A stretch of DNA of 61,329 nucleotides from the IMG/VR virus record IMGVR_UViG_3300028569_000039, positions 1-61,329 of that record, one strand, 5' to 3'. Of this stretch, positions 5,800 through 61,329 are shown one piece after another (within the stretch, counting starts at the first letter, position 1; the number at the start of each line of letters is the position of its first letter). The stretch comes from a virus. Taxonomy: Duplodnaviria; Caudoviricetes. The notes under the pieces are model-generated. The model saw nothing but the letters and a program-made list of their open reading frames with translations. It ran no database searches and was not told where the DNA came from. Made by a program: the position numbers and the translations under genes.

Positions 5800-7146
5800 T
5801 TATAATAATACAAAATTCAGTGCGTTTAGAAGGGCGTCTTGCAAATTTATTTTTCCGTCCAGTACCTTGACCACCTGCTCGTCGATACTCTTGGCCACGG
5901 TCAGGTGATGTATGATAACCGGTTTTTCCTGCCCCTGGCGGTAGATCCTAGCATTGGCCTGGATGTAGTTCTCTGAGCTCCATGGTAGATCGAACCACAC
6001 TGTCTGTGCTGTGTCTCCAACGTTGCACTGAAGATTAAGCCCGATTCCGCCGCTTTGCGGGTGGGCAAGGAGCATACGAATCTCGCCACGACGCCACGCC
6101 TCAATGTTGTCATCGTCCAGCACCACCGCCTCTGGGAACTGAAGACGTATTCGTTGGAGCGAATGCTTGAAATGATAGAAGACAAGCGTGGGACTTGAAG
6201 ATTCTTCCATGATCGACTCAAGGCATTCCAGTTTAGCGCGGTGTACTTCTTGTGCCTCTCCTGTTTCATTGTAGATCGCGCCTGATGTGAACTGGAGCAG
6301 CTTGTTCGCCAGTGCCGCTGCTGTTGGAGCTGTGATCTTTTCTTTCTTGACTTCAATGACCATGTCTTTTCTAAGCTGCTCATACTTACTCCTTACGTTT
6401 TTGTCGATCTCAATTTGGTGATATAGCGACGTACAACTAGGCAGCTGTAAGAAATCCTCAGCCTTAAGACTAAAGCAAATATCAGAAATTTTATTGTTAA
6501 TGACTTCATTGCATCCCTCTTTTAGTTTCCAGCTATATACAACCCTGGTTTGCCGGTTCATTTGATCCGGCGTCATGTACTTATCCCTGAACCGGGTCAA
6601 AGACGTCTCCAAACGCTCTCCTAAGTCCAATATACCCACCTGTGACCAGAGATCTTGCATGCCCTGAGGGGTAGGTGTACCTGTGAGGATTAAACGCCGT
6701 GAGAAGCCCTTTAAATGCTTCTTGAGTGCCTTAAAACGCTTGGTGCTCGGATCCTTAAACCGGCTGCTCTCATCTATTACTAAGTTAGTAAACACTAACT
6801 TAAATGGGGCGTCGTTAAAGAGCCATGCCACATTCTCCAGATTGATCAGGTAAATGTCCGCATGGGTTTTTAGCCCGACAATGCGCTGAAGGGGGTTGCC
6901 CATGATCTTGGCCACTTTAAGGTGTCTTAGATGTTCCCACTTCTTGACCTCCGCGTCCCATACCGTCTCCGCTACTCGCTTGGGTGCTATGATCAGCGTC
7001 TTGCCCTGAAACTGTTCCGCTATGATTGTCAGGGTCGTCGCTGTCTTCCCAAGTCCAGGGGGTAGAAACAGACCCAAGTTCGGCACCGACAGCGCCCGGG
7101 ATATGATCTCCTGTTGATATTGGTGTAGCTGCGAGCGCTTTAACAT
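5800..7146 (-). CDS. SNF2-family (SF2) helicase
   Basis: PGLGKT Walker A, IDESS, LTGTP, GIGLNLQ, QANARIYRQGQ. Confidence 0.9.
   Translation of the reverse strand: MLKRSQLHQYQQEIISRALSVPNLGLFLPPGLGKTATTLTIIAEQFQGKTLIIAPKRVAETVWDAEVKKWEHLRHLKVAKIMGNPLQRIVGLKTHADIYLINLENVAWLFNDAPFKLVFTNLVIDESSRFKDPSTKRFKALKKHLKGFSRRLILTGTPTPQGMQDLWSQVGILDLGERLETSLTRFRDKYMTPDQMNRQTRVVYSWKLKEGCNEVINNKISDICFSLKAEDFLQLPSCTSLYHQIEIDKNVRSKYEQLRKDMVIEVKKEKITAPTAAALANKLLQFTSGAIYNETGEAQEVHRAKLECLESIMEESSSPTLVFYHFKHSLQRIRLQFPEAVVLDDDNIEAWRRGEIRMLLAHPQSGGIGLNLQCNVGDTAQTVWFDLPWSSENYIQANARIYRQGQEKPVIIHHLTVAKSIDEQVVKVLDGKINLQDALLNALNFVLL
5802..5814 (-). promoter_or_regulatory. Phage promoter core without GGGCG, 4 nt before the ATG of the sigma4-like gene
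   Basis: TTTGTATTATTATAAGCATG on the minus strand, embedded in the helicase 3' end. Confidence 0.7.
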
Positions 7147-7612
7147 TTTCTTTTACTCTCTTTGTTATTTCGTGTTGCCAATCGGCGACTGCGTACAAAT
7201 CTTTTGCCTCAAACTCGGCCTTAATTCGATTGGCCTTGTCGGATATAAAAACCACGTTACCTCTTACGTAGCCCAGCGCCGGAATTATTCTGTCTAGTGA
7301 CGGGCTGTAAATGTTCTTACCGGCGCCAAGGTTTCCCCATGTCATAGATACATTAAAGATGGGGCAGTTTTCAGTGTAGATTGATCTAAGATACTTCACG
7401 TCTAAATTAAACGGGAGATTCTTTTCTTTGGCACGACGGCGCGAACTTTGAAATGCCTTCTCAAGCGTAAACCAAATCGGATCAGCCCAGCGCTCAGGAA
7501 AAAATCCATTGCGTTTAAGTTTTTGTTTTTCGTAGCCATAAAATACCCAGCCGTCTTCGCGATACTCGCCGCGCTCAAATGGTTTTCCTGTGTTAGGATT
7601 TAGTCGCTTCAT
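6917..7612 (-). CDS. HNH-like (His-Me finger) endonuclease, C-terminus overlapping the helicase
   Basis: CPIF...SPSLDRIIPALGYVRGNVVFISDKANRIK. Confidence 0.7.
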   Translation of the reverse strand: MKRLNPNTGKPFERGEYREDGWVFYGYEKQKLKRNGFFPERWADPIWFTLEKAFQSSRRRAKEKNLPFNLDVKYLRSIYTENCPIFNVSMTWGNLGAGKNIYSPSLDRIIPALGYVRGNVVFISDKANRIKAEFEAKDLYAVADWQHEITKRVKENVKALAATPISTGDHIPGAVGAELGSVSTPWTWEDSDDPDNHSGTVSGQDADHSTQASSGDGMGRGGQEVGTSKTP

Positions 7613-9543: not shown

Positions 9544-9697
9544 CGCTCTCGCCTGACGGGCACACTGGTTTACCCAACATTGCAAACTCTGCATACTGCC
9601 ACGCCGTGTCACGTACCTCTGCCGGCGTCGCGCCACGGGCGACTAAGCCCATGACTGCCGCGACTGCAAAAGCAAACTCCTGCTCTTTATCTGTCAT
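9524..9697 (-). CDS. Hypothetical protein, 57 aa (not in ORF track)
   Basis: MTDKEQEFAFAVAAVMGLVARG... ATGA overlap with the HNH stop. Confidence 0.6.
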   Translation of the reverse strand: MTDKEQEFAFAVAAVMGLVARGATPAEVRDTAWQYAEFAMLGKPVCPSGESDDKLPV

Positions 9698-10230
9698 TTT
9701 GTTTTTTCCTTAATTGAAGTTACCATAGCCTCTAAAATCGGCAATATTTTTTGTTCGTCAAATTGATTTAATGCTAGGTTGACTGCGCATAGTACTACCC
9801 TTGTATTTTCTGGTGTGTAATTTTTGTTACTGCTGTCAATTCTATCTAATGACGGCGCGTAAGCGTTTTGTTTTTTGTCCCCAGTGAAAGAAAAGTCAAA
9901 TAAAAGGTTTGTAAATTCGCAAGTGCCTTTTAATAATTTCTGTTCAATCCACTGTCTGTCTATAGTCACAATAGCGTCATTTTCTTTTGCTCTGTTTTTA
10001 GCACTTAACAACATTCTGTTACTTCTGCCTTTCATTGTTTGTGCATAAGCTAAATTAAAGGAGTAGTTTTCAAGTTTTCTTTTTTTAAATCTTTCAGGCG
10101 AAATCCACAGCTCAACAAAAAATCCGTTTTGTTTTACTTGTTTTTTATTGTACGCATGAAATAAAAATCCATCTTCTCTTTCGTCACCGTAAGAGAAGGG
10201 CGCTCCTGTTTTGGGGTTTTTGCGTTGCAT
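9694..10230 (-). CDS. HNH-like endonuclease, paralog of 6917..7612
   Basis: Shared N-terminus (NPKTGAPF..G..REDGF.F) and APSLDRIDS...YTPENTRVV...VN. Visibly AT-rich. Confidence 0.75.
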   Translation of the reverse strand: MQRKNPKTGAPFSYGDEREDGFLFHAYNKKQVKQNGFFVELWISPERFKKRKLENYSFNLAYAQTMKGRSNRMLLSAKNRAKENDAIVTIDRQWIEQKLLKGTCEFTNLLFDFSFTGDKKQNAYAPSLDRIDSSNKNYTPENTRVVLCAVNLALNQFDEQKILPILEAMVTSIKEKTK

Positions 10231-10238
10231 TAGATACT

Positions 10239-10315
10239 CCACTTAGTAGTTGATGTTAGAGGGGCTATTCCATAAAGTGGTATGGAAAGGGCTGGCCAGC
10301 CTTTTCGCCTTCTCT
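10239..10315 (-). ncRNA. Candidate cis-regulatory 3-way-junction RNA with RBS pseudoknot
   Basis: AGAG..GGC/GCC..CTCT closing stem and two hairpins. Loop CCACTT is complementary to AAGTGG overlapping the GGAG RBS. Confidence 0.5.
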
Positions 10316-10319
10316 ATAT

Positions 10320-10351
10320 ATAATAATACAAAATCTAGCACAAAACCGCCC
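10320..10351 (-). promoter_or_regulatory. Phage promoter GGGCG-N14-TTTGTATTATTAT
   Basis: Exact bipartite consensus. Confidence 0.8.
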
Positions 10352-12660
10352 TAAAACACAGCATCGTCAAATGTTTCAATGGATTCCACATACTTCTGTG
10401 CCTTTGCGTTTAATCTTACTCCCATGTATACCTGCATACGATCACCGTTCTCGCGTGTCTGCTCGGAGCGTACTAACTGCTCCTGCGTCGCCGCCAAGAA
10501 TCTGCGCTTGAACGCCTGCTCGGTTCCTGGGGGCATTGACTTCTTGAGCGCCCAGTGTTTGTAGCAGGCAAACACGTCCTCTTTGCGAACCATGTAGTCC
10601 GGATGGAACTCCAAGGCGTCCTCTGAGAATGATCCGATTGGATTGCCCAGCTCGGCCATCAAGTCCAAGTACTCCTTACCGCTAGCAGGTTGTACAAAGT
10701 GCCCACCCCTTGCAATGCGTCTCTTAAGTCCTTCCATCGCCCAGTTAAAGATACCGCCGAGCTCTTGCTCCAGCTTGTGTGACAAGTCGGTGTCCTCCTT
10801 ATTAAAAAACGACTTGCTCATCTTGAGGACGATCATGCGGCCGGTGAGGGCGTTACTGTTCTCGGTTAGTTGCAGCACCTCGTTCGAGTAGATTACTAAT
10901 CGTGTCGGTAGGTAGCCGTTCCATGCCTCTTTGTTTTTACGATTGACCGTAATCGTATCCCCGCCGACAATACGCAACAGCTGAGATACCACAGCACTGC
11001 GATTGCGCTCAGGAGCACGAGCGTCGGTAAAAGAAGCAAGTAGCTTACCCAGCCATGGTTGTAGTCCGAATGTGTCACACAGTTCTCCTAGCTCGGGCGC
11101 GACGGTGTTGTGCTGTCCAAGCAGTGCCACCAGCACCTTGTTGATGGTACCCTTGCCACTACGGCGTGGGCCGATGATGTTAAAAAACTTTTGCTGTCTC
11201 GTGTCTCCCGACAGGATGTAGCCAAACATCTCCTGTAGCGTGTCAATCGACTCTTGGTCATCACCCCACACCGAGCGCAAGAACGTGTCCCACGTAGGCG
11301 ATACGGCCGTCTGGTTGTACTCGAACGGCAGTGAGTTCTGTGTAAAGAAGCCCAGTGAGTGCGGTATCAGTATGCTGTCTTCCAGATGGAAGATGCCGTT
11401 CTTGAGCGAGACCAGCTTGGATGCGGCTGGCTTAGCTTGCGAGTAGTCTTCTAACCAAATCGGTGGCTTGGTATTCGGGTGGTTGGGTAAGTGCACGACC
11501 GACTTGATTGCGTCCAGTGCACCTGATACCGAGGCAGGTGATGGATTGAACGGGACTAAGGCACCCTGCTTGCCCGACTTCTTGCACTTCTCTAAGAACT
11601 GGTACACCTTGGAGCGGATGGTGGCCTCCTCGATTACCTCGTAGTGCGTGCCGGCGTAGATAAAGAAGTCGTCTGCATAATGCACCAGCTTGTAGCCCTC
11701 CTCGCTCGAGTAGTAATTGTCCAAGAACGTACGGGCATGGTTCATCGCCCCCGCGTCAAGGATAATCTCGCCCCGTGCTAAGGCCTCCTTGCGATCTTGT
11801 TGGTTGACCTGAAACAAGAGCGAGCGCAGTGTCGCGCCCGATCCCTTGAACGTCCTCCACTTGTTCTCGCACGAGTAGTCTCCCGTGGCAGTGTAGCCTG
11901 CACCAGTCGATGACCACCGATCCCATGCCTCACAGGCCTCGACGTCGCCGCCAAACTGGTGGTGCAGGATCGCGCCTACCTTGAGCCAGTCCGAGTAGCC
12001 CATGTTGGGATCTAACTTGGCTAGGATCCCGGTCTCGACACGGTGAATGTCATACCCCTCGAGCGGTGCCGTGTAGTCACCGAATGCGTCGCCCGTGTTG
12101 TGGAACGTGCGCTCGGGGATCACTAAGCTCAAGTCCTGCACCTCGGCCGGCACCGTGCCGCCTATGTGACGACCAGTGACGGTAAAGAAGCGTGAGTTCG
12201 CATACGCCTCAAAACCGATGCTATGGTCTGCGTGTGAGGCGAATGGGTTGGATCGGGTGAATATCTTAACGCCTGTGCCGGACGGACTAACCTCCATGTA
12301 GCCCTCGACTCGGTCTGCTAATTGCTGCATTGCAGCATTTATGAAACGGGCTGTGTGGTGGTCGTAGCAGTCATCCAAGTCGATGCCTACCAAGTCGTCA
12401 TCATGCGAGAATACAAAGCCCACGCCGTCAAACTTGTGCGTATTGTAGGCCTGCTCGACTGACATAAAGTCCGTCCACGTCTTGGGGTCTGTCGATGATG
12501 CGTACCGCCCAGTGACCTGTAGCGGCATCTTAGCCCATCTCCTGTTCTCCCCATCACCGACCTGCACGAACGACCACATCACCCAGCGGGGCACCTTACG
12601 GAGCTCTATGGGTATGTTGGCCAGCTCGACGGGCAGGCAGAATGGTTTGGTATCGCTCAT
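10351..12660 (-). CDS. Primase-polymerase / PriCT-2 / D5-like SF3 helicase fusion
   Basis: GIDLDD and EVSPSGTG prim-pol motifs, YSDWLKVG...WDRWS PriCT-2, GPRRSGKGT Walker A. Confidence 0.9.
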   Translation of the reverse strand: MSDTKPFCLPVELANIPIELRKVPRWVMWSFVQVGDGENRRWAKMPLQVTGRYASSTDPKTWTDFMSVEQAYNTHKFDGVGFVFSHDDDLVGIDLDDCYDHHTARFINAAMQQLADRVEGYMEVSPSGTGVKIFTRSNPFASHADHSIGFEAYANSRFFTVTGRHIGGTVPAEVQDLSLVIPERTFHNTGDAFGDYTAPLEGYDIHRVETGILAKLDPNMGYSDWLKVGAILHHQFGGDVEACEAWDRWSSTGAGYTATGDYSCENKWRTFKGSGATLRSLLFQVNQQDRKEALARGEIILDAGAMNHARTFLDNYYSSEEGYKLVHYADDFFIYAGTHYEVIEEATIRSKVYQFLEKCKKSGKQGALVPFNPSPASVSGALDAIKSVVHLPNHPNTKPPIWLEDYSQAKPAASKLVSLKNGIFHLEDSILIPHSLGFFTQNSLPFEYNQTAVSPTWDTFLRSVWGDDQESIDTLQEMFGYILSGDTRQQKFFNIIGPRRSGKGTINKVLVALLGQHNTVAPELGELCDTFGLQPWLGKLLASFTDARAPERNRSAVVSQLLRIVGGDTITVNRKNKEAWNGYLPTRLVIYSNEVLQLTENSNALTGRMIVLKMSKSFFNKEDTDLSHKLEQELGGIFNWAMEGLKRRIARGGHFVQPASGKEYLDLMAELGNPIGSFSEDALEFHPDYMVRKEDVFACYKHWALKKSMPPGTEQAFKRRFLAATQEQLVRSEQTRENGDRMQVYMGVRLNAKAQKYVESIETFDDAVF

Positions 12661-12680
12661 TTTATCCTTTCAGTGTACAT

Positions 12681-12781: not shown

Positions 12782-12892
12782 TGACAGGGTGTACAGGGTA
12801 GACACGCCTTTTTTACTTTTTTTCAAACTTTTTTTAAAAAAAATAAATAAAGTATGGAAAACACTAAAAACGTCGTGCTACCCTGTCTACCC
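12782..12892. repeat. Origin-like element, copy 1 (direct repeat of 18945..19056)
   Basis: ACAGGGT iterons, T/A-tract core, inverted GGGTAGACA/TGTCTACCC arms. Confidence 0.8.
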
Positions 12893-12990
12893 AAGACACT
12901 TTTAAACAATAGCTAACGGAAACAACGACTTACAAGCGAAATGTTTCACGCAATGTTTCACGAAATATACACAACATTAACAAACATAGC

Positions 12991-13645: not shown

Positions 13646-13992
13646 TCATCCCCCTGTGCTATTGAGTAGGTGTCGCGTAGCCTTGGCGACTCATCGTTCC
13701 ATGAATCACTGGCACCGTAGTCACCTCGGATCGCACTCATGCGCTCTGTCTTCCTGAACTCAGGCTCGACTGCCCACCATGCGCTGGATGCCTCCAAGTA
13801 CTCAATGAACTCGTCATTCTGTTCAAAGAGTGGATGGTTTAGCCCCTCAACGTCAACGGTCTGTGTAACGGTTGCCTGCCGTACCCATGGCCTCTTGGTA
13901 TAGCCCTCAGTGCGTACAACACCCACCCTGTCACGCGCGGTAATGAATCGTTTGTAGGCGCGTTGCTGTTCGTCTGTTAGTTGTAATGTCAT
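13642..13992 (-). CDS. Hypothetical protein
   Basis: ORF track, coupled. Confidence 0.65.
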   Translation of the reverse strand: MTLQLTDEQQRAYKRFITARDRVGVVRTEGYTKRPWVRQATVTQTVDVEGLNHPLFEQNDEFIEYLEASSAWWAVEPEFRKTERMSAIRGDYGASDSWNDESPRLRDTYSIAQGDE

Positions 13993-14561
13993 TCCTCATT
14001 CTCCTCATTAAAGTTGTCGTCACTGATACTGCCTAGTGATACTGGCTCACGCGCCAAGCACGCTCGCAGTCGGTATATCTTCTTGGCGTCCACGTCCAGC
14101 GCGGTGGCTAGCTCCTGCACCGATGGCTTACGGCCTAGTGTCTGAGACAGTACGCGCTCGTTGTAGTGCATACGGTAGATGTCCTCCACCACGTTGATGG
14201 GTAGTCGGATAATGTTTGCCGTGTTGTCAATCTCCCTGCGCACGCCGCGCTCAATGAACGAGCGAGCAAATGCCGCGAATGGTATCTTGCCCATCGGTTT
14301 CCATCTCTTTGCCGCCTCCAGTAGCTTCTCATTGCCGATTGCCAGTATGTCCTCCTGTGGTAGCTTACTATGTTCCCATACCGTCATCTTGGTGACTACA
14401 TGGGGCACAAAACGTAGGTTATGCCTTACCAGCTTCTCCAGCGCGTTGTCATCCCCAGTGGCGATGCGTTTTGCTAGTGCCTTCTCCTCTTCTAGTGTCA
14501 GTGGCTCTATGCCGTACAGTGATTTCAGATAGTCCGACTTGATGTCGTTGTTACTTGCCAT
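13989..14561 (-). CDS. RpoD/RpoS-like sigma factor with regions 1.2, 2 and 3 but no region 4
   Basis: YLKSL..IEPLTLEEEKALAKRI..GD..ALEKLVRHNLRFV, then IIRLP, then LSQTLGRKPSVQELA. Ends at EPVSL plus an acidic tail. Confidence 0.85.
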   Translation of the reverse strand: MASNNDIKSDYLKSLYGIEPLTLEEEKALAKRIATGDDNALEKLVRHNLRFVPHVVTKMTVWEHSKLPQEDILAIGNEKLLEAAKRWKPMGKIPFAAFARSFIERGVRREIDNTANIIRLPINVVEDIYRMHYNERVLSQTLGRKPSVQELATALDVDAKKIYRLRACLAREPVSLGSISDDNFNEENEE

Positions 14562-14705
14562 AATGGTGCCTTTTTATGTAAGAGAAAATCTCTTTATGCA
14601 ACATGAGCGCAAGGCCAGCCACAACGGCAAAAACACTGTCAAAGCTAAACCCATAATTGTCCAATATAAACCATCCGTAGATTAACGCAAAAAATCCGAT
14701 GATAT

Positions 14706-14888
14706 TCAAAACGGTGCCTCCTTGAGTAGTAGTAGTGTAGCCATTGCGTACGGATTGGCCTTAGGATCCCTTGGCAGTGCTTTCAGGCTCATGCCGTCGG
14801 TAAGGTAGGGGGTAGCCTCCAGTTTGCTTACAAACTTCCTGCAGGCACCCCCAAACTCGTCAATCAGAATGTACTTGTACTGGCTCAT
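14706..14888 (-). CDS. Hypothetical early protein
   Basis: ORF track. Confidence 0.5.
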   Translation of the reverse strand: MSQYKYILIDEFGGACRKFVSKLEATPYLTDGMSLKALPRDPKANPYAMATLLLLKEAPF

Positions 14889-15020
14889 TGGCTCGTTGCT
14901 CCTGTTTCCAGTCCTGCCATACCTTAAGCAGGTTGACCTCGGGTGTTGGTGTGGCCAAGATGTGGTCGATAAAGTCCTGCTGCTCTTTGTTCATTCTTAC
15001 GATCTGATTTAGTCCGTGCA

Positions 15021-15290
15021 TTATACATTCTCCTGTAATGGTTTGACTACTACTGCCTTGATGTGTTGGACGGTTGTCACTGATTTGACAAAGGCCTCGT
15101 CGCTCAGTTTGCGTACCAGTGGTGCGCTGATTTGTTCCCTGTCATATTCCAACACCTCGGCAAAGAACTGCTCGCCTTCATAGTTGCCTACACCACGCGC
15201 GATGAGCTCTGCCTTGAGCTTGCTCTTGATCTCCTCAAGGGCTTGGATCTGTTGTGATACTGCACCGTACTGGTCAATGATGTTTTTCAT
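15021..15290 (-). CDS. Hypothetical early protein
   Basis: AGGAG RBS. Confidence 0.7.
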   Translation of the reverse strand: MKNIIDQYGAVSQQIQALEEIKSKLKAELIARGVGNYEGEQFFAEVLEYDREQISAPLVRKLSDEAFVKSVTTVQHIKAVVVKPLQENV

Positions 15291-15303
15291 GGTAATTCTC
15301 CTG

Positions 15304-15540
15304 TTAATGTTTTTTAAATGCTATTTCGTATTCGACGCCGTTGTCATCTACTTCACCGTCTACTTGTATGTAATCATACCCGAGTTCTTCGCAATAGTCA
15401 AATACTTCCTCCTCAGTGTTAAATTCACGCACCTCTTTGATGTTTTGAATAACCGCCAACGGTGTGTAATCCCGAGGCGCGTTCAAAGTGTCTATCGAAA
15501 ATTCCCCAAAAACGATGGTGCCTATGTAATAAGATGTCAT
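15304..15540 (-). CDS. Hypothetical acidic early protein
   Basis: GGAGG RBS, ATGA coupling at 15540. Confidence 0.6.
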   Translation of the reverse strand: MTSYYIGTIVFGEFSIDTLNAPRDYTPLAVIQNIKEVREFNTEEEVFDYCEELGYDYIQVDGEVDDNGVEYEIAFKKH

Positions 15541-15845
15541 TGTAAACCCTCCAAAAAGTCTAACCATTCTTGACCACGGTGCTCAAGCACAAACTCGGGC
15601 GATCCCTTGGTGCCTGCCTTGACCTCGGTGCGTGATGGTATGCGGTTGCCGTAGTAGTCATTGAACGACTCATTACCAAGTAAGCACCAGCCATCTGTGA
15701 TGGCCTGCATCATGGCACGGCCGTACGATCCCTGCATTGACCATAAGCCGCCGTTGATAGCACGTTGGATGGAGGCATAGAGCTCGTACTCGTCGACTGC
15801 GTCGTCTGCCTCTATGTTGTTGATGTCTTTTAATGATAGTGTCAT
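15537..15845 (-). CDS. Hypothetical early protein
   Basis: WSMQGSYGRA motif, GGAG RBS. Confidence 0.7.
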   Translation of the reverse strand: MTLSLKDINNIEADDAVDEYELYASIQRAINGGLWSMQGSYGRAMMQAITDGWCLLGNESFNDYYGNRIPSRTEVKAGTKGSPEFVLEHRGQEWLDFLEGLQ

Positions 15846-15979
15846 ACCTGCTCTCCAGTTAATGAAATAAGCCAATTTTGTTTTACATACTGTGATTTAT
15901 CTAATAGGTAATTTGTGCATTCTTCAAGTGTACCATAAAACTCTATTACACCTGAGTTACTTACGCAGTATTCTGTCAT
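15842..15979 (-). CDS. Hypothetical early protein
   Basis: GAGG RBS before MTEYC. Confidence 0.5.
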   Translation of the reverse strand: MTEYCVSNSGVIEFYGTLEECTNYLLDKSQYVKQNWLISLTGEQV

Positions 15980-15983
15980 TGTG

Positions 15984-16211
15984 TTAGTCCTCTTTGAATA
16001 ATTGTAAAAAGTAAGTGACAGAGTCCGCCACATTGTTTGCTAGGTCTTGCCCCTCCATTGTCTCGAATGGCTCCCATGGTGTCGCAATGTCCCAGTTCTC
16101 ATCGGCAATACCCTCGAGGATCTTTGAGAATGGTAAGTCGCCGTCCCAGTCTGATAAGTATGTGCTCAGTACAAAATGCTCTGCCTTGTTGCGTAATTGT
16201 TCTGCGTTCAT
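15984..16211 (-). CDS. Hypothetical early protein
   Basis: ORF track, RBS. Confidence 0.65.
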   Translation of the reverse strand: MNAEQLRNKAEHFVLSTYLSDWDGDLPFSKILEGIADENWDIATPWEPFETMEGQDLANNVADSVTYFLQLFKED

Positions 16212-16357
16212 TATTCCTGCTCCTCATATAGTTTGATCTTGGCATCCTCGGGGTTGTGATACCACCGGTTGATAATTAGCCATGCGTCGTCTTCGTCGTA
16301 TGCGTAAATCAGTGGGCGATCAATGCCGTCCACGGTTGGTTGATATAGTGCTCCCAT
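16211..16357 (-). CDS. Hypothetical early protein, 48 aa (not in ORF track)
   Basis: MGALYQPTVDGIDRPLIYAYDEDDAW... TAATG coupling. Confidence 0.55.
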   Translation of the reverse strand: MGALYQPTVDGIDRPLIYAYDEDDAWLIINRWYHNPEDAKIKLYEEQE

Positions 16358-16487
16358 TATTCCCACTCCTCTATGTCGTAGTCGTATACATAAAACCCCT
16401 GGTCTACGGCCTGTTGGTAGGCCTCTGCAAAAGTCGGTGCGTCGATGATGAGGGTCTGCCCCTCCTCATCCTTAAAGTATGCTGTAA

Positions 16488-16697
16488 TCATGCTGTGATC
16501 TCCTGTACAAACTGCTCTGCCTCTTCGAGGGTGGCGAACGACTTGACCATGTGCCCCCAGCCGACGTGCATCTCCATTACAGTAAACCGGCCGCCACGAT
16601 AGCTAGGCTTGTCGATGCGGTACGTTGGGTTGTCGATACTTGGTAAATTCCAAAGTCTTGCACGCTCTTTGTCTTCTGCCCAGTCAAATTTTGTCAT
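16488..16697 (-). CDS. Hypothetical early protein
   Basis: GGAGG RBS before MTKFDW. Confidence 0.65.
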   Translation of the reverse strand: MTKFDWAEDKERARLWNLPSIDNPTYRIDKPSYRGGRFTVMEMHVGWGHMVKSFATLEEAEQFVQEITA

Positions 16698-16751
16698 ATA
16701 TCCTCCGTTGTTTAATTCATTATACCGATTTTGGCCGGCCGTTGTCAATAA

Positions 16752-16973
16752 TTATTTTTCCCACTTAGCCAGGCCGTACAGGCCGTCCTTGACCTGCGCC
16801 AGGGTGTTGCGTACTACATTGGCACTGCTCTCACACTCGAGAGCCAGTACATCATCACCGCGCACATGAGCGCAGTCTGCTAGCTCCACAATATCTTTAA
16901 GGTATGCCCTTAGCGCATACTCCACTAATTCTCCTTGGCGGGTTGTGAGCCCGATCTCGAATTTATTTACCAT
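16752..16973 (-). CDS. Hypothetical early protein
   Basis: AGGAGG RBS. Confidence 0.7.
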   Translation of the reverse strand: MVNKFEIGLTTRQGELVEYALRAYLKDIVELADCAHVRGDDVLALECESSANVVRNTLAQVKDGLYGLAKWEK

Positions 16974-16984
16974 ACATCCTCCTA

Positions 16985-17251
16985 TTAGTCGTATACACCC
17001 AGCTCACCTGGGTTAATCCATTCTGCGTGCAGGCCGTACCTGGCCAGCGTGTTGGTGATCAGTGGGTTAACCCCAAACTCCCAGTCCGGTATGTTGCGGC
17101 CGTCGTAGTAGTCTGCCCATATTGTGTCGCGGTCGTACTCGCCGTAGATACCCTCGGCACTGATCTGAAAATTCTCAATGTCACTGCGCTCGTACACTGG
17201 CGCGCCGATCTTTTTGAGTGCGTTGAATGCTAGTCTGTGGTTGCGTGTCAT
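16985..17251 (-). CDS. Hypothetical early protein (start MTRNHR, just downstream of hammerhead 1)
   Basis: AGGAG RBS. The longer track ORF runs into the ribozyme. Confidence 0.7.
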   Translation of the reverse strand: MTRNHRLAFNALKKIGAPVYERSDIENFQISAEGIYGEYDRDTIWADYYDGRNIPDWEFGVNPLITNTLARYGLHAEWINPGELGVYD

Positions 17252-17270
17252 GGTGTAGCTCCTATGTGTT

Positions 17271-17320
17271 GGTCTCATCAGTGCCAGCATCACTGGCATA
17301 CGCCTCGCGGCGTTTCGACC
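17271..17320 (-). ncRNA. Type II hammerhead ribozyme 1
   Basis: GGUC-GAAA-CGCC(GCGA)GGCG-UA^UGCCAGU(GAU)GCUGGCA-CUGAUGA-GACC. The catalytic core is complete. Confidence 0.9.
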
Positions 17321-17324
17321 TGTA

Positions 17325-17648
17325 CTACGCGTACTCCCTTGCTGTTATGAATTGAAAGTACTCAGGATTGAATTCACCCCACTCGGCGGCCTTGTCGCCG
17401 ATTAGTGAGCCAGCCATGATGTTGAAATCATACACTGCAATGCAGTCCTGATCCAGTGCCGTGGCCAGCACGCCCACGTTACCAGTGTGATATGCGTAGT
17501 GGATAATGACTGTTGGCTCGTCGCCGTCGGTGCTGATACGCACCTGCTGGACTCCTGATACAAACTGCAATGCCTTGGCCAGTGTTTGCTCTACTGTATT
17601 ATAGCCGCCTGTGAATGGGTTAGCTAACCCGATATTGATAGTGTACAT
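17325..17648 (-). CDS. Hypothetical early protein flanked by two hammerheads (start MYTINI)
   Basis: AAGGAG RBS. EPTVII...LDQDCIAV...WGEFNPEYF. Confidence 0.75.
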   Translation of the reverse strand: MYTINIGLANPFTGGYNTVEQTLAKALQFVSGVQQVRISTDGDEPTVIIHYAYHTGNVGVLATALDQDCIAVYDFNIMAGSLIGDKAAEWGEFNPEYFQFITAREYA

Positions 17649-17663
17649 AGTGCTCCTTGTGTT

Positions 17664-17715
17664 GGTCTCATCAGTGCACGCATCACGTGCATACCGTGTC
17701 GCCACGGTTTCGACC
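17664..17715 (-). ncRNA. Type II hammerhead ribozyme 2
   Basis: GGUC-GAAA-CCGUG(GCGA)CACGG-UA^UGCACGU(GAU)GCGUGCA-CUGAUGA-GACC. Stems covary with copy 1. Confidence 0.9.
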
Positions 17716-17717
17716 TG

Positions 17718-17885
17718 CTATGAGTTAAGCCACTCATCATACGTTTTTAATGGCTTACCGTTTGTAATTGAATTGCCGTTGCCGTCATCGGCGCAAGCTA
17801 AGTAAATTTGGTACTCTTGATCGTTAGTACCACGCATTTTGGTTTGCCAATCTGCGCTTAATAATAAACTGTCATTATCTTGCAT
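17718..17885 (-). CDS. First early gene, 55 aa (not in ORF track)
   Basis: MQDNDSLLLSADWQTKMRGTNDQEYQIYLACADDG...KPLKTYDEWLNS. AGGAG RBS. Confidence 0.75.
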   Translation of the reverse strand: MQDNDSLLLSADWQTKMRGTNDQEYQIYLACADDGNGNSITNGKPLKTYDEWLNS

Positions 17886-18061
17886 GGTATAGCTCCTGTT
17901 ATTTGGTTAGTACTGCCTCGAGCGCACTGGTGTACAATGCGCTCTGAGCATTACTATCTATTAGCATACGCAGGGATGAATACCTGCACCGGTTCTGCCG
18001 GCTCCCCCTTATTTATCGCGGTTGGGTTTGCGTACTGCAACTGCTTTACTACCATGACTCT

Positions 18062-18090
18062 ACTATAACGACCTTTGGAATGGATGTCAA
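18062..18090 (-). promoter_or_regulatory. Host sigma70 early promoter
   Basis: TTGACA-17 bp-TATAGT at the head of the small-gene operon. Confidence 0.8.
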
Positions 18091-18316
18091 CAACTATTTA
18101 ATACTTGACTGGACTGTGGGGTTTTGTGGGATAGTGTGGGTTTGCTGGTGATCTCTATGCTGTTGTATTCTCGCCCACCCTCCAATTTGCCCCTCGCGTG
18201 CGCATCGCCTCCTAGCCCTTATGCTACCTCGAAGACTAGAGATCGTCACCTACTTGATACCTACCCCTCAACTCTAGTCAGCTCGTCTCCTAGGTGCCTT
18301 AAAACGCGCCCAATCC

Positions 18317-18784
18317 GTCAATAGGTGTTTACCCTAATAGCCAGCTAAGTTAGTCGCCACTAAGTTAATGCACCAAAATGGTGCACGCGCCAGCTTGGCG
18401 CCGTGTCACGTTGCTGTGTTGTTATCTTGCCACAGTGTTGCGTGCATACAACAGAGCTGACGTATGCACCACATTGGTGCACTAACTTAGTGGCTACTAA
18501 CATCATGCACCACATTGGTGCACGCGCCTGCTTGCCTCGGCAGACAGGGTGCTGGGCGCGGAGTCAATAGGTGTTTACCCTAGGTGTTGTGCCAGCGCAA
18601 CACTGGACTGTTGGGCTCGGCATACAGGGTGCTGGGCGCGGAGTCAATAGGTGTTTACCCTAGGTGTTGCGCGCATACAACAGTGTGGCAAGATAACAAC
18701 GCCGCAATCTGACGCGAGCCTGCGTTTCACAATGTGAAATGCGTTACCACAATGCGGAACAGGGGGTGTTGTTTTTAAACCACA
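18317..18784. repeat. Non-coding array of repeated operator-like palindromes (includes 3 NtrC-consensus boxes)
   Basis: TGCACCA-N3-TGGTGCA x3, GTCAATAGGTGTTTACCCTA x3, TGTKG-N8-CMAC(A/G) x6, TTAGT-N4-ACTAA x2, CACAATGYG x2. 46-bp direct repeat at 18544/18624. Confidence 0.8.
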
Positions 18785-18944
18785 CTACCCAATTTGGGTC
18801 CTGTCGGGGTTGGGCTTGGTGGCCCCATGCCAGACCCTAAGTTTGTGAAATTTCCCGGAAACACAGACCCTAAATTTTTTTTTATAAACTAGGGCGGAGA
18901 GGACCTACTACATGTAGTAGGTAGGGGCACTAAAATCACTAGAA

Positions 18945-19056
18945 TGACAGGGTGTACAGGGTAGACACGCCTTTTTACTCTTTTTTAAATTTTTTTTAAA
19001 AAAAAAATAAATAAAGTATGGAAAGAGTGAAATAAGCCGTGCTACCCTGTCTACCC
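18945..19056. repeat. Origin-like element, copy 2
   Basis: Near-identical to 12782..12892. Confidence 0.8.
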
Positions 19057-19085
19057 TTGACAAACCTGCTTTATTTGCACTGGAA

Positions 19086-19117
19086 GGGCGACAACCCCTG
19101 GTTCTTTGTATTATTAT
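19086..19117 (+). promoter_or_regulatory. Phage promoter GGGCG-N14-TTTGTATTATTAT (terminase operon)
   Basis: Exact consensus. ATG follows after 4 nt. Confidence 0.8.
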
Positions 19118-19121
19118 GTGT

Positions 19122-19430
19122 ATGAACAAATACGTATACCAAATCCAAGGCGCCCTGGAGAGTAGGCAAGGGCAGTTCTTGGGGCTTCGTGTCCTGGTGT
19201 GCGATGTGTACCACTTTGATTCGGTTGATATACCTGTAGAGGTACTAGATTCAGAAACCGCAAAGTATTTACAGTTCAGGCTTTCTATTACGGCGGAGAC
19301 GGTCAACATAGCAAAACTGCCGGTTGAAATTCAAAATAGGATACGCGCGCCGTTAGGGCGATGGCTGGACCACTGGGTCCTAGATAATTTTTATGGCGAT
19401 AACAGCAAACACAAAGATACTAACGCTTGA
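19122..19430 (+). CDS. Hypothetical protein
   Basis: First ORF of the plus arm. Confidence 0.7.
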   Translation: MNKYVYQIQGALESRQGQFLGLRVLVCDVYHFDSVDIPVEVLDSETAKYLQFRLSITAETVNIAKLPVEIQNRIRAPLGRWLDHWVLDNFYGDNSKHKDTNA

Positions 19431-20385
19431 TTACTGGAAGCCAGCGTACAAGCTGGAGGTAGGTGACTATGTCTTTGATCGTAAGGGCAACATAGTCCAG
19501 GTCAAACTAGCACAGCAGTACCAAGGCATCCGCTGCTATGAGGTCATGTTCAACGACTACCTGACCGTGGAAGGTGACGCCAACCTGGCACTACCCACAG
19601 AGAACCCCAAGTACCGCAACCGACTGGTAACGTACAAGGGCAAGCTGCAGTTTAGGCGCCCGCTTAAGTCTCTGACAGCAGAAAAGCTGCTCGATACCCC
19701 GCTCCTAGACGAGCGTAACCGAAAAACAATCTCGGTTCCCACCACAAACCCCCTGGCATTACCCCACCAAGACCTACCAATCCCGCCATTTGTCTTTGGC
19801 TTCTGGTTCTTTGCCCGTAGATCCACTGGCAGGATGGCCGCGGCCAAGGGAACGACCGAGTTTGTGGTCCAAAGATTCAAAGACTATGGCTACAAAGTGG
19901 TTATGGGCCCGCTAATTAACACTGGCGAGCGTGAGTTTAGCGTAAAACCGACGGTTGAGTCGCAGTTAATCCCCAGTATCCCTAAGATCATTACCAACAA
20001 CTACCTGTTCTCGTCCCCAGAACAGCGCCAAGACCTGCTTTCTGGCATTGTCTGCGCAAAAAACAGGCGTTACAACAAGAGAAAGGACCGTTTTCGGTTT
20101 TCTTCTCGCCAGTACGACACCGTTCGCCGCGTCCAGCTCTTGGCAGAGTCCCTTGGCGGGCGTTCTAGCATACAAAACGACCCAAACAGGAAGAACTTTA
20201 CGGTTTTCTTTAAGATCCGCAGCACAATTCACCCTGAACAGGCCTCGCCAAGCATAAAAGTCCACCATGGACGGCGCTATATCAGCAAGATCAGCGAGAT
20301 CCCGACCCAGCTCTGCGTGCACATTGAGACAACGGGCGAGGATAACACCATTCTAGTCGGGGAGGGCTTCATACCGTGTCTTTAA
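19393..20385 (+). CDS. Free-standing degenerate intein homolog (Hint + LAGLIDADG-like)
   Basis: AITANTKILT..W...LEVGDYVFDRKG, CYEVMF, QRQDLLSGIV, VQLLAESLG, ISKISEI...CVHIE...ILVGEGFIPCL. No terminal His-Asn. Confidence 0.7.
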   Translation: MAITANTKILTLDYWKPAYKLEVGDYVFDRKGNIVQVKLAQQYQGIRCYEVMFNDYLTVEGDANLALPTENPKYRNRLVTYKGKLQFRRPLKSLTAEKLLDTPLLDERNRKTISVPTTNPLALPHQDLPIPPFVFGFWFFARRSTGRMAAAKGTTEFVVQRFKDYGYKVVMGPLINTGEREFSVKPTVESQLIPSIPKIITNNYLFSSPEQRQDLLSGIVCAKNRRYNKRKDRFRFSSRQYDTVRRVQLLAESLGGRSSIQNDPNRKNFTVFFKIRSTIHPEQASPSIKVHHGRRYISKISEIPTQLCVHIETTGEDNTILVGEGFIPCL

Positions 20386-21821
20386 CAACAAAACAAGAGG
20401 CCATCCTTAAGAAATTTGCCGAGGAGCGCAAGAACTGGCCGCAGCAACAGCTAGATGCCGCCATCTGGCGCATCAAGTGGAGCCTACAAGCGCTGCCACA
20501 CCAAAAAGAACCAGAGGATGGGGAGTATGACACGTTTCTTATGCTTGCCGGTCGTGGATCGGGCAAGACTCACACGGCCTCTCACTGGATTGGCATTCGT
20601 GCTTGGCTGTATGACAACACCCGCTGGCTCGTCACAGCTCCCACCTCAAACGATATACGTGCAACTTGTTTCGAGGGGGACTCTGGACTTATCAGTATCA
20701 TTCCCTCGTCACTTATCCGTGATTACAACAAGTCACTCTTTGAGATTACCCTCACCAACGGATCCATCATCCAAGGTATTCCAGCATCCGAACCAGAACG
20801 GTACCGTGGTAAGCAGTACCATGGGGCCTGGTTCGACGAGCTGTGTGCATTCGATTACATCGACGATGCCTACGATGGCGTACAGTTTACCCTCCGTCTT
20901 AAGGACCCGCGAATCCCCCGGGTGCAGCAGATTATTACCACCACTCCCAAGCCCAAGGAACTGATTGTAGACCTTAACGAGGGCAAGGTAGGGGGTGATG
21001 TATACGTAGCCAACGCGAGCTCCTACGACAACCGTGCGAACCTCTCAGAGACCTTCTTTAAGCAGCTAGAGACATACGAGGGCACCGACATTGGTAAGCA
21101 GGAGATCTACGGCGAGATCTTGGATCCAGAAGCAGCCGGTATCATCAAGCGTAAACATTTCCGCATGTGGCCAGCAAACAAACCCACTCCCGTCCTAGAG
21201 TATGTGATTGCCTCGTATGACCCGGCGACCAGCGAGAAGACGGTAAATGACCCTACTGCCTGTACGGTCTGGGGTGTGTTTGAGAGGGAAGACGCTGGGA
21301 CCTCTGTCATACTGTTAGATGCATGGGACGCGCACCTGTCGTACCCTGAGCTGCGCCGTAAGGTGATTGACGACTTCAAGGAAGTAGTCTATGGGGCAGA
21401 CAATGACTTCGGTAAGGGCAAGAAGGCCGACCTAATACTGATGGAAGACAAGTCTGCCGGTATCTCGTTGATCCAAGAACTCCAGGGCGCTGGTGTCCCT
21501 GTCCGTGGATACAACCCAGGCCGCGCGGATAAGATCCAGCGTATCAACATCGTGGCACCGCTCGTGGTTAAGGGCAAGGTGTTCATCCCCGAAGAGCCAA
21601 GCAACCCAGGCGAGTACGCCAACTGGGCTAAACGCTTCATGAGGCAAGTTTGTTCATTTCCGGAGGCTGGGGGCCATGACGACTACGTTGACAGCCTCAG
21701 CCAAGCCCTACGCGTCCTCAGGGACTCTGGCTGGCTGCAGCTTGATCCGCTGCCTGCTAGGGACTATGACTACGCTGACGACGACTCAAACAAGAAGTTT
21801 AGCAATCCCTACGCACAATAG
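20376..21821 (+). CDS. terL: Terminase large subunit
   Basis: AGRGSGKT, WFDE, YDPA, EDKSAG, HDDYVD. Confidence 0.92.
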   Translation: MSLTTKQEAILKKFAEERKNWPQQQLDAAIWRIKWSLQALPHQKEPEDGEYDTFLMLAGRGSGKTHTASHWIGIRAWLYDNTRWLVTAPTSNDIRATCFEGDSGLISIIPSSLIRDYNKSLFEITLTNGSIIQGIPASEPERYRGKQYHGAWFDELCAFDYIDDAYDGVQFTLRLKDPRIPRVQQIITTTPKPKELIVDLNEGKVGGDVYVANASSYDNRANLSETFFKQLETYEGTDIGKQEIYGEILDPEAAGIIKRKHFRMWPANKPTPVLEYVIASYDPATSEKTVNDPTACTVWGVFEREDAGTSVILLDAWDAHLSYPELRRKVIDDFKEVVYGADNDFGKGKKADLILMEDKSAGISLIQELQGAGVPVRGYNPGRADKIQRINIVAPLVVKGKVFIPEEPSNPGEYANWAKRFMRQVCSFPEAGGHDDYVDSLSQALRVLRDSGWLQLDPLPARDYDYADDDSNKKFSNPYAQ

Positions 21822-25802: not shown

Positions 25803-26012
25803 ATGGCCGATAATAACTTAAAAGGCTTTCGTCAGACTTACCAAGAGACCGGCACGCTATCCAGCGGCGGCGGTCCAGAGGACAAAAAACTAGACGCAGG
25901 AGCCTCTGGTTCCAAGCGTTCTAACAACGCAGCCAAAGGTAAACCAGCTCGCTCGAGCAAGGTAGGACCAGATAAGAACCTAAAAGACATTGGCGGCGGT
26001 AACTTTTATTAA
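25803..26012 (+). CDS. Small low-complexity protein
   Basis: AGGAG RBS. Confidence 0.65.
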   Translation: MADNNLKGFRQTYQETGTLSSGGGPEDKKLDAGASGSKRSNNAAKGKPARSSKVGPDKNLKDIGGGNFY

Positions 26013-61104: not shown

Positions 61105-61329
61105 ACCGCAAAGTCTGCAGCGGCGGATGTAGAGCCACCGAATTTCTCACCGTCCTCTAACTTCTGGACGTTATTTAAACCAGCTGCAATGCCTTTAGAT
61201 CCGCTTGTATCGTACGGATACAATGTGATTGAGGCACGACCATAGCAACCTGAGTAAAACTCGCTGGTGTCAATGATTGGGTTCAAGTCTGCATCTACAA
61301 TGCCTGGCTTTTCATTAGAGCTAGCGTTG
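61101..61329 (-). CDS. DUF2815 SSB, C-terminal part
   Basis: FYSGCYGRASI...GIAAGLNNVQKLEDGEKFGG...ADF. Confidence 0.85.
   Translation of the reverse strand, partial: NASSNEKPGIVDADLNPIIDTSEFYSGCYGRASITLYPYDTSGSKGIAAGLNNVQKLEDGEKFGGSTSAAADFAV

Follow-up and report, generated by a model that had tools for sequence, protein, structure and literature searches.

The stretch of DNA analysed here, referred to as the window, is the whole of the 61,329-base IMG/VR record IMGVR_UViG_3300028569_000039, the genome of a tailed phage (Caudoviricetes) in which a gap of approximately 1.2 kb (17886-19115) separates two divergent sets of genes. This gap contains the subject of the present work, a dense array of repeated and mostly palindromic motifs (18317-18784). 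To its left, the early and replication arm extends from 17885 leftward to position 1 and is resumed at the other end of the record; to its right, the packaging and structural arm, with the large terminase, portal and tail genes, begins at about 19116. The two ends of the record overlap (1-163 versus 61167-61329): an exact copy of the initial 60 bases begins at 61167, and the match extends with a few mismatches to the end of the contig. From this overlap the genome, although its entry gives it as linear and 74% complete, was probably assembled as a circle and is likely to be complete. Among the proteins scanned there was no integrase, repressor or partition protein, and we regard the phage as a lytic-looking one of approximately 61 kb from freshwater, the public runs that contain this stretch being lake, freshwater and drinking-water metagenomes. 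A megablast search returned no near-identical phage records. The nearest isolates are the Caulobacter phages RW, RLK, KcrB and GB2A, whose large terminases are 42% identical to that of the window, and the identity to the large terminases of Brevundimonas phages is 36-38%.

The array is built of five motif types, labelled A to E (Table 1), and direct reading together with repeat and pattern scans confirmed their positions as these had been reported in a first-pass annotation made from the letters of the sequence. Their counts were compared with those in 100 dinucleotide-preserving shuffles. The B dyad matches three times at up to two mismatches in the 61,329 bases, each time perfectly, against an expectation of 0.26 (at least three matches in 1 of 100 shuffles), and B1 lies 96 bp to the left of B2. 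The half-palindromic A 20-mer occurs in three identical copies and nowhere else at up to three mismatches (expected 0.01; 0 of 100 shuffles), and the C pattern, TGTKG-N8-CMACA, has five matches, all within 18417-18784 (expected 0.43; 0 of 100 shuffles). Matches to A, B and C are confined to the gap within the 61 kb genome, and the D dyad has one further palindromic near-match, with one mismatch, at 6784. The CACAATGYG boxes, present at 18728 and 18748 with a third copy at 559, are not significant on their own (three in the window versus 1.5 expected; at least three in 21 of 100 shuffles), and the first of them belongs to the conserved dyad TTTCACAATGTGAAA, which we term E. The array consists of dyads, and lacks the tandem short iterons beside an AT-rich unwinding stretch that mark an iteron-type replication origin.

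Of the six C sites of the first-pass annotation, five match the full pattern, and the sixth (18684) ends in ACG and is an inverted copy of the site at 18417, with C2' and C1' together forming an inverted copy of 18417-18453. The order of the motifs had been called shuffled, an appearance that we attribute to internal duplications, namely the 80-nt tandem duplication given in Table 1 and two further duplications in inverted orientation, 52 and 47 nt long. The DNA is also ORF-free only approximately, as mechanical open reading frames (ORFs) of 42-55 residues overlap the array; the relatives described below rearrange this region by whole modules, which argues against coding.

Table 1. Positions of the array motifs and of the elements and genes around them, in coordinates of the window.
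Feature	Position	Strand	Remarks
A1, 20-mer GTCAATAGGTGTTTACCCTA	18317..18336	+	left border of the array, conserved in relatives
D, dyad GTTAGT-N4-ACTAAG	18349..18364	+	pattern scan
B1, perfect NtrC-consensus dyad TGCACCA-N3-TGGTGCA	18369..18385	none	pattern scan
C1 and C2, adjacent TGTKG-N8-CMACA dyads	18417-18434, 18436-18453	none	pattern scan
B2, perfect NtrC-consensus dyad	18465..18481	none	pattern scan
D', inverted copy of the D dyad	18486..18501	-	repeat and pattern scans
B3, perfect NtrC-consensus dyad	18506..18522	none	41 bp from B2
80-nt tandem duplication	18521-18600 / 18601-18680	+	84% identical; doubled F-block, A and C unit
A2, 20-mer GTCAATAGGTGTTTACCCTA	18563..18582	+	slot that holds a sigma54 promoter in relatives L081 and L038
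C3, TGTKG-N8-CMACA dyad	18585..18602	none	2 nt downstream of A2
A3, 20-mer GTCAATAGGTGTTTACCCTA	18643..18662	+	second unit of the 80-nt tandem duplication
C2'	18665-18682		2 nt downstream of A3
C1'	18684-18701		ends in ACG
E, dyad TTTCACAATGTGAAA (18725-18739) and second box CACAATGCG (18748-18756)	18725..18756	+	
C4, TGTKG-N8-CMACA dyad	18767..18784	none	where relatives have their last B site
Non-coding stretch with inverted repeat (17908-17956)	17883..17959	-	77 nt, directly upstream of the first leftward ORF
sigma70-type promoter-like site TTGACA-17-TATAGT	18062..18090	-	11 of 12; faces the early leftward genes
IR/AT element, copy 1	18945..19063	+	AT-rich core of about 70 nt; inverted sets of tandem 9-bp iterons (ACAGGGTGT ACAGGGTAG)
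IR/AT element, copy 2	12782..12898	+	same iterons; just upstream of the primase-helicase gene
Promoter-like 16-mer, first rightward copy TTGTATTATTATRTGT	19106..19121	+	phage-wide; before the first late gene
16-mer TTGTATTATTATATAT, at most 2 mismatches, upstream of genes	522, 2141, 3911, 5798, 10316, 12677, 58759	-	
16-mer TTGTATTATTATATAT, at most 2 mismatches, upstream of genes	19106, 21841, 26042, 30001, 37328, 37890, 44724	+	
First rightward gene	19122..19430	+	102 aa from the conserved start; conserved throughout the relatives examined
P4-type primase-helicase gene	10351-12660	-	early/replication arm
sigma70-family factor gene	13989-14561		leftward arm; Pfam regions 1.2, 2 and 3 only

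Conservation and exchange of the motifs in relatives

A search of IMG/VR with the large terminase yielded 435 relatives, from which 80 loci were kept, and three more loci were taken from a genome bin. Motifs were counted over the 47 loci with a fully covered gap (43 distinct sequences), amounting to 63.5 kb of gap and 433 kb of DNA outside it. The gap DNA is far more diverged than the flanking genes, with short patches persisting in it, and in the 26 relatives with both flanks recognisable it is mostly 1.0-1.25 kb long. B is the most widespread of the motifs, being present in 40 of the 47 loci with 87 sites in the gap and a single one outside. It is followed by the E dyad (28 loci; 34 sites in the gap, none outside), the N4 form of D (27 loci; 71 in the gap, none outside), A (18 loci; 23 in the gap, six outside) and C (nine loci; 15 in the gap, 11 outside). 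When the order of the motifs is compared, most of the 26 relatives show the same one, which runs from A through GTTAGT...ACTAAC dyads, B dyads and the E dyad to an AT-rich element; this again speaks against a shuffled order.

The relatives carry from one to seven copies of B, and neighbouring copies are spaced most often by 40-41 bp (12 cases), then by 25 bp and 92 bp (five cases each), with other spacings rarer. In the window, the 41 bp between B2 and B3 would be close enough for an activator oligomer, with both sites probably on the same face of the helix. The leftward early module next to the gap (13989-17885) is highly mosaic among loci L004-L083. Many relatives with a large terminase 88-90% identical to that of the window have none of the 15 small early ORFs that we tested, and many relatives that bear B are likewise devoid of all 15. 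Because B persists where the early ORFs differ, we conclude that a common B binder does not come from the variable early module. A correlation of the motif types with the early ORFs of the window gave no candidate binder, the early genes being too mosaic.

The relatives differ from the window in the promoters that accompany B. Perfect sigma54 -24/-12 promoters of the form TGGCAYG-N4-TTGCW lie within the array in nine of the 47 relatives, with 13 sites inside it and one outside; 11 of the 13 are on the + strand, toward the late genes, and two on the - strand. All nine relatives with such a promoter also carry B, and seven of them carry boxes of a further kind, the palindromes AATGAGAATCATTCTCATT, which we take to resemble the Fur box. 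These Fur-like boxes are found in 22 of the 47 relatives, all 37 copies lying within the gap. In five of the six cases measured, the distance from the start of the closest upstream B site to the + strand sigma54 promoter is exactly 26 nt. At locus L043, three B sites are followed by a sigma54 promoter and then, about a dozen bases downstream, by a Fur-like box, a layout that on sequence would be that of an ordinary activated and repressed promoter. At three loci, L056 (254-286), L066 (3239-3271) and L038 (1956-1988), two sigma54 motifs stand face-to-face with their -12 elements abutting and so form one long palindrome. Another sigma54-like match that recurs in relatives, 333 nt before the large terminase gene, was discarded because it falls within a coding frame.

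The window itself has no Fur-like match and, as the first-pass annotation had noted, no -24/-12 sigma54 promoter near the array: none was found at up to two mismatches in 17581-21080, or at up to one mismatch in the whole window. When the duplicated unit of the window is aligned with the loci L081 and L038, the left and right flanks are shared and the A 20-mer exactly replaces the sigma54 promoter. The A 20-mer would then be the slot-equivalent of a promoter. A T7-type RNA polymerase was considered as the reader of the 20-mer, and no such gene was found among the large ORFs scanned.

The sequence TGCACCAnnnTGGTGCA is the NtrC consensus as it is set out in the relevant passages of two papers (PMC8743547; PMC4987338, table), and all 14 specified bases of B agree with it exactly. 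The resemblance first noticed in the window thus holds, and the position of the motif is conserved in the relatives as described above. The phage itself appears to lack a protein of this kind: neither the Fis-type helix-turn-helix (HTH) domain (PF02954) nor the AAA+ domain of sigma54 activators (PF00158) is encoded in the six frames of the window, with control genomes scoring for both, and a Pfam scan of 30 proteins of the left arm and of the first two rightward ORFs detects no HTH domain either. To this extent the first-pass finding of no phage regulator to account for the motifs was borne out.

A possible host is suggested by a 3.1 Mb genome bin labelled uncultured betaproteobacterium, which holds the three additional relatives (L086-L088; G001 contigs 85, 42 and 27). 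These three variants of the phage lineage are separate contigs of the bin, which also has a light-dependent protochlorophyllide reductase gene. The bin encodes NtrC, GlnA and PII, and co-binning, a weak kind of host evidence, is what ties it to the phage. At up to one mismatch, the B pattern has ten sites in the bin, and its reversed control none. The three phage contigs account for six of the ten, of which two are perfect and four have one mismatch. Outside the phage contigs, one site lies 84 nt upstream of glnA, the gene of a type I glutamine synthetase, and another upstream of a porin-PII operon, each being one base off the consensus; the two remaining sites lie inside the ntrC gene and between pepA and lptF. 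The Fur-like pattern has five sites in the bin versus none for the control, of which one abuts a TonB-family gene and another adjoins a weakly FeoA-like gene (E 2.5e-4, 20.7 bits, below the model cut-off). These neighbourhoods suggest that the B palindrome marks the nitrogen regulon in at least one plausible host lineage and, more tentatively, that the Fur-like palindrome marks its iron regulon.

Flanking elements and the rest of the genome

On the side of the early genes, the gap contains a sigma70-type promoter-like site and a non-coding stretch with an inverted repeat (Table 1). The latter has matches in 17 of 80 relatives, at approximately 80-96% identity, and is kept even in several whose early genes differ.

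On the other side, the array is directly adjoined by an element with an AT-rich core set between inverted arms of tandem 9-bp iterons, the inverted-repeat/AT-rich (IR/AT) element, which folds with a z-score of -5.4. In the relatives the core is kept, and each arm is a set of 9-bp repeats, two or three in tandem, whose sequence varies by lineage with the mirror symmetry retained. Thirty-eight of 45 distinct versions fold at z <= -3, in a test with 30 shuffles per sequence that kept single-base composition only and whose seven failures include mis-centred extractions. A second copy stands before the primase-helicase gene, and in nine of the ten contigs with both genes the primase-side and terminase-side copies carry the same lineage-specific iterons. 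Among the primase loci, 46 of 73 pass a strict test that requires 10 nt or more of exact inverted arm, a length not reached in the controls, where the maximum was 9. The two copies evolve in concert, which points to a lineage-specific DNA-binding protein. From the AT-rich core and the adjacent P4-type primase-helicase gene we consider the element to be origin-like. The two copies bracket both the array and the region read from the host-type promoter (about 12.9-18.1 kb).

The 16-mer TTGTATTATTATATAT recurs throughout the phage, with 17 matches at up to three mismatches versus 1.0 expected. Its strand agrees with the direction of the genes in 15 of the 17, the exceptions at 26002 and 38834 both being weak three-mismatch matches, and the copy at 12677 precedes the primase gene. 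The sigma factor encoded by the phage probably recognises this 16-mer as its promoter form.

The protein of the first rightward gene gives a confident AlphaFold model (pLDDT 83.6) of three strands followed by two helices. Neither Pfam nor PHROGs returned a match to it, the best Foldseek match in the PDB has an E-value of 0.14, and no recognisable DNA-binding fold is apparent. Further into the same arm, an ORF of 330 residues (19393-20385) overlaps both of its neighbours in a frame that differs from those of the preceding gene and of the following large terminase gene. It matches large-terminase PHROGs only, without a match in Pfam or a sequence match in the PDB, and our impression is of something intein- or homing-endonuclease-like. 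Caulobacter phage RW likewise has a separate 'large terminase' piece annotated upstream of its terminase gene.

The other genes of the leftward arm include those for a helicase, a DUF2800 exonuclease, HNH-type endonucleases, ribonucleotide reductase and a family A DNA polymerase. Two HNH or endonuclease VII-like ORFs lie in this replication arm (6917-7612 and 9694-10242) and are possibly homing endonucleases. No tRNAs were found in the window. Rfam gave no match at family thresholds, and the sub-threshold matches, which resemble microRNA precursors, are explained by the long AT-centred hairpin. An unannotated stretch of 1.4 kb in the Manatee Spring phage MW202545 was considered as a counterpart of the array and rejected: it is unlike the array and by eye looks coding, with long A/G-rich runs and short overlaps between successive frames.

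A proposed role of the array as a control region

We favour the reading, to which we give a probability of about one half, that the array is a conserved and modular cis-regulatory hub that is partly wired to host regulators. The three B dyads would be bound by host NtrC, such that the hub reads the nitrogen state of the host, and the C, D and E dyads and the A 20-mer would be operators for further regulators of the host or the phage. The hub would most likely control transcription that starts in the gap, mainly rightward toward the origin-like element and the late genes, and it may also act on the leftward early promoter. The binding of NtrC, the promoter that is controlled in this phage and the physiological outcome are what we infer from motifs and their arrangement. 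We prefer this reading because B agrees exactly with the NtrC consensus, is conserved independently of the variable phage genes and has no phage-coded NtrC-like protein to account for it, and also because of the promoter-operator grammar in the relatives, the counterparts in a host regulon and the precedent of CtrA discussed below. Three roles had been proposed at first sight for the array: a DNA sponge that titrates host metabolic regulators as the genome replicates, a nutrient-state sensor that gates early transcription, and a protein coat that protects the genome end. Among these the nutrient sensor is the best reading and gains the most from the follow-up, through the sigma54 promoters and Fur-box-like operators of the relatives; the support for the sponge is circumstantial.

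Several observations weigh against such a hub. First, in the window there is no sigma54 promoter, which leaves its NtrC sites without an obvious target, and the sigma70-like early promoter is 280-430 bp downstream of the B sites, which is an unusual position for activator binding. Second, in the relatives the face-to-face pairs of sigma54 motifs are odd for productive promoters, and those relatives that have sigma54 promoters are known only from fragments of 4-20 kb, such that their genomes may encode an activator. Third, among five more distant complete genomes (primase 67-72% identical), B sites occur in two and the sigma54 motif in none. Fourth, the tie to a host by co-binning is weak evidence, as said, and the G+C content of four sampled loci of the bin is approximately 39-43% against approximately 50% for the phage region. 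Fifth, patterns like D and A have no match in the bin, and the matches to E there are limited to the three phage contigs and a single site at the end of contig C56. The supposition that all five motifs are of host type is hence not upheld; host support exists for the NtrC motif, and not for A, C, D or E. The first-pass attribution of the TGT-N12-ACA sites to Fis-type regulators gained no support either.

The last of these observations bears equally on a second explanation, which we regard as unlikely: all the dyads, B included, would be operators for phage-encoded regulators that time the switch from early to late genes at the divergent promoters, the likeness to NtrC sites being a coincidence or the work of an NtrC-like phage protein. 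The many small early proteins without a recognisable family could supply such regulators, the distribution of D, A and E in the bin is as expected for phage operators, and C is limited to a sublineage (nine of 47 relatives). A sigma factor of its own and the phage-wide 16-mer further imply that the phage runs much of its own transcription. This explanation has difficulty, however, with the persistence of B in relatives that lack the tested early ORFs of the window, with the exact agreement at all 14 specified bases, and with the co-occurrence of B with perfect sigma54 promoters and Fur-like boxes. It is further opposed by the absence of a Fis-type HTH from the six frames of the window, and by the first conserved rightward protein, which is modelled confidently and matches no DNA-binding fold.

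A third explanation treats the array as an auxiliary part of an origin, where bound proteins or transcription would open or load the adjoining IR/AT element, in the manner of origins that are activated by transcription or assisted by enhancers. The P4 ori/crr pair and the primary origin of T7 offer analogies. The satellite phage P4 has a bipartite iteron origin, composed of ori and crr, that is bound by its primase-helicase alpha; the IR/AT element resembles it in layout, with an AT-rich stretch set between short iterons of both orientations, two copies a few kb apart and a P4-type primase-helicase gene next to one of them. The AT-rich core with its inverted iterons directly to the right of the array, the folding of most versions with arms that vary by lineage and stay symmetric, the second copy with the same iterons upstream of the primase-helicase gene and the inverted arms at most primase loci are all in keeping with this, as is the direction of the relatives' promoters, which point toward the element. 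The array itself differs from P4 ori/crr, however, in being made of dyads that lie outside the IR/AT element and are typical of transcription factors rather than direct iterons. The second IR/AT copy, moreover, has no B, C or D array next to it, and the array is thus not an obligatory companion; and the element, whose origin function is a prediction, could instead be a regulatory or insulating one that brackets the early module. We consider an origin role for the array improbable.

More doubtful again is a decoy, in which the NtrC sites would titrate NtrC, and in relatives also the sigma54 holoenzyme and Fur, as the genome amplifies. It would account for three perfect consensus sites in a window without a sigma54 promoter, for the four to seven B sites of some relatives, for the face-to-face sigma54 motifs, which look better suited to binding than to transcription, and for the better agreement with the consensus of some phage sites in the bin than of the glnA and PII sites. 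Nevertheless, the sites per genome are few, and in relatives B belongs to units of upstream activating sequence, promoter and operator with a fixed 26-nt offset, which speaks for regulation and not mere binding.

Least probable is a packaging role, in which the repeats, placed before the terminase genes, would be recognised as pac or cos or would form a genome end coated with protein. The array does lie 1.6-2 kb upstream of the large terminase gene, and 16 of 50 upstream contig ends cluster 1250-2000 bp before that gene by hand count. This clustering is, however, explained by the assembly, as unitig-type contigs from four lake runs stop precisely at the 80-nt duplication and at the AT-rich palindrome. 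In addition, the overlapping ends of the window lie far from the array, the gene that adjoins the array is not a recognisable small terminase (a weak small-terminase-like match occurs only at 2209-2655), and the motif set fits transcription signals.

For the hub that we prefer, the closest known counterpart is found in the 'lytic deferment' phages of Alphaproteobacteria, in which divergent gaps of about 1 kb are packed with sites for host CtrA, and CtrA binding and gene regulation were shown (Mascolo et al., 2022; PMC9437464). The resemblance to the present gaps extends to a span of about 1 kb between divergent blocks, to sites for a host global response regulator that are packed there and nearly absent elsewhere, and to the gain and loss of sites among relatives, there read as a monitoring of host state (PMC9437464). 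These phages are distant kin of the present one by the large-terminase identities given above. They differ in that their regulator is CtrA, of the cell cycle, and here it would be NtrC, of nitrogen; and the present relatives add sigma54 promoters and Fur-like boxes, such that several host inputs are apparently combined.

In a comparison with the enterobacterial NtrC enhancer of the glnAp2 type, the 17-bp dyad is identical to the consensus, and the relatives have pairs 40-41 bp apart and a perfect -24/-12 promoter beside them. The differences are the lack of a sigma54 promoter in the window and, in the relatives, a nearest site centred at about -44, sites downstream of promoters and some promoters that face each other; the NtrC sites of glnAp2 are at -100 to -140. 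Promoters of cyanophages and other marine phages carry boxes for host regulators (NtcA, PhoB) as single boxes before individual genes. These are alike in being wired to a host nutrient regulator, and are not known to form a multi-motif array at a divergence point. Word searches of open-access text found no paper on NtrC or sigma54 sites as phage control elements, which is not proof of absence. Gaps dense in sites for a host regulator are already known in phages for CtrA, and the combination of NtrC, sigma54 and Fur-like signals in one exchangeable array was not met in the open-access literature.

A bolder extension of the favoured hub, which we offer as speculation with a small chance of being right as a whole, is that of a 'plug-in sensor board'. 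Cassettes of host-regulator signals, such as NtrC enhancers, sigma54 promoters and Fur boxes, would be swapped among members of this abundant lake lineage at one slot beside the two-copy origin-like element, and origin firing or late transcription would be gated by the nitrogen and iron state of the host. In the present phage, where the sigma54 promoters would have been replaced, the three NtrC sites would act as a trap that blunts the nitrogen-starvation response during genome amplification.

The usual view of lytic phages is that their programme is fixed, and to our knowledge the sensing of host state through host transcription factors has been shown for only a few regulators (CtrA, NtcA and PhoB). 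Here, a very common freshwater lineage, with its 435 terminase relatives in IMG/VR, appears to wire its control region to NtrC, and its members appear also to use sigma54 RNA polymerase and Fur, with the corresponding modules exchanged at one slot. If true, this would tie the development of phages in lakes poor in nutrients to the limitation of nitrogen and iron, and the lineage would provide naturally occurring variants with which to test the combination of such inputs.

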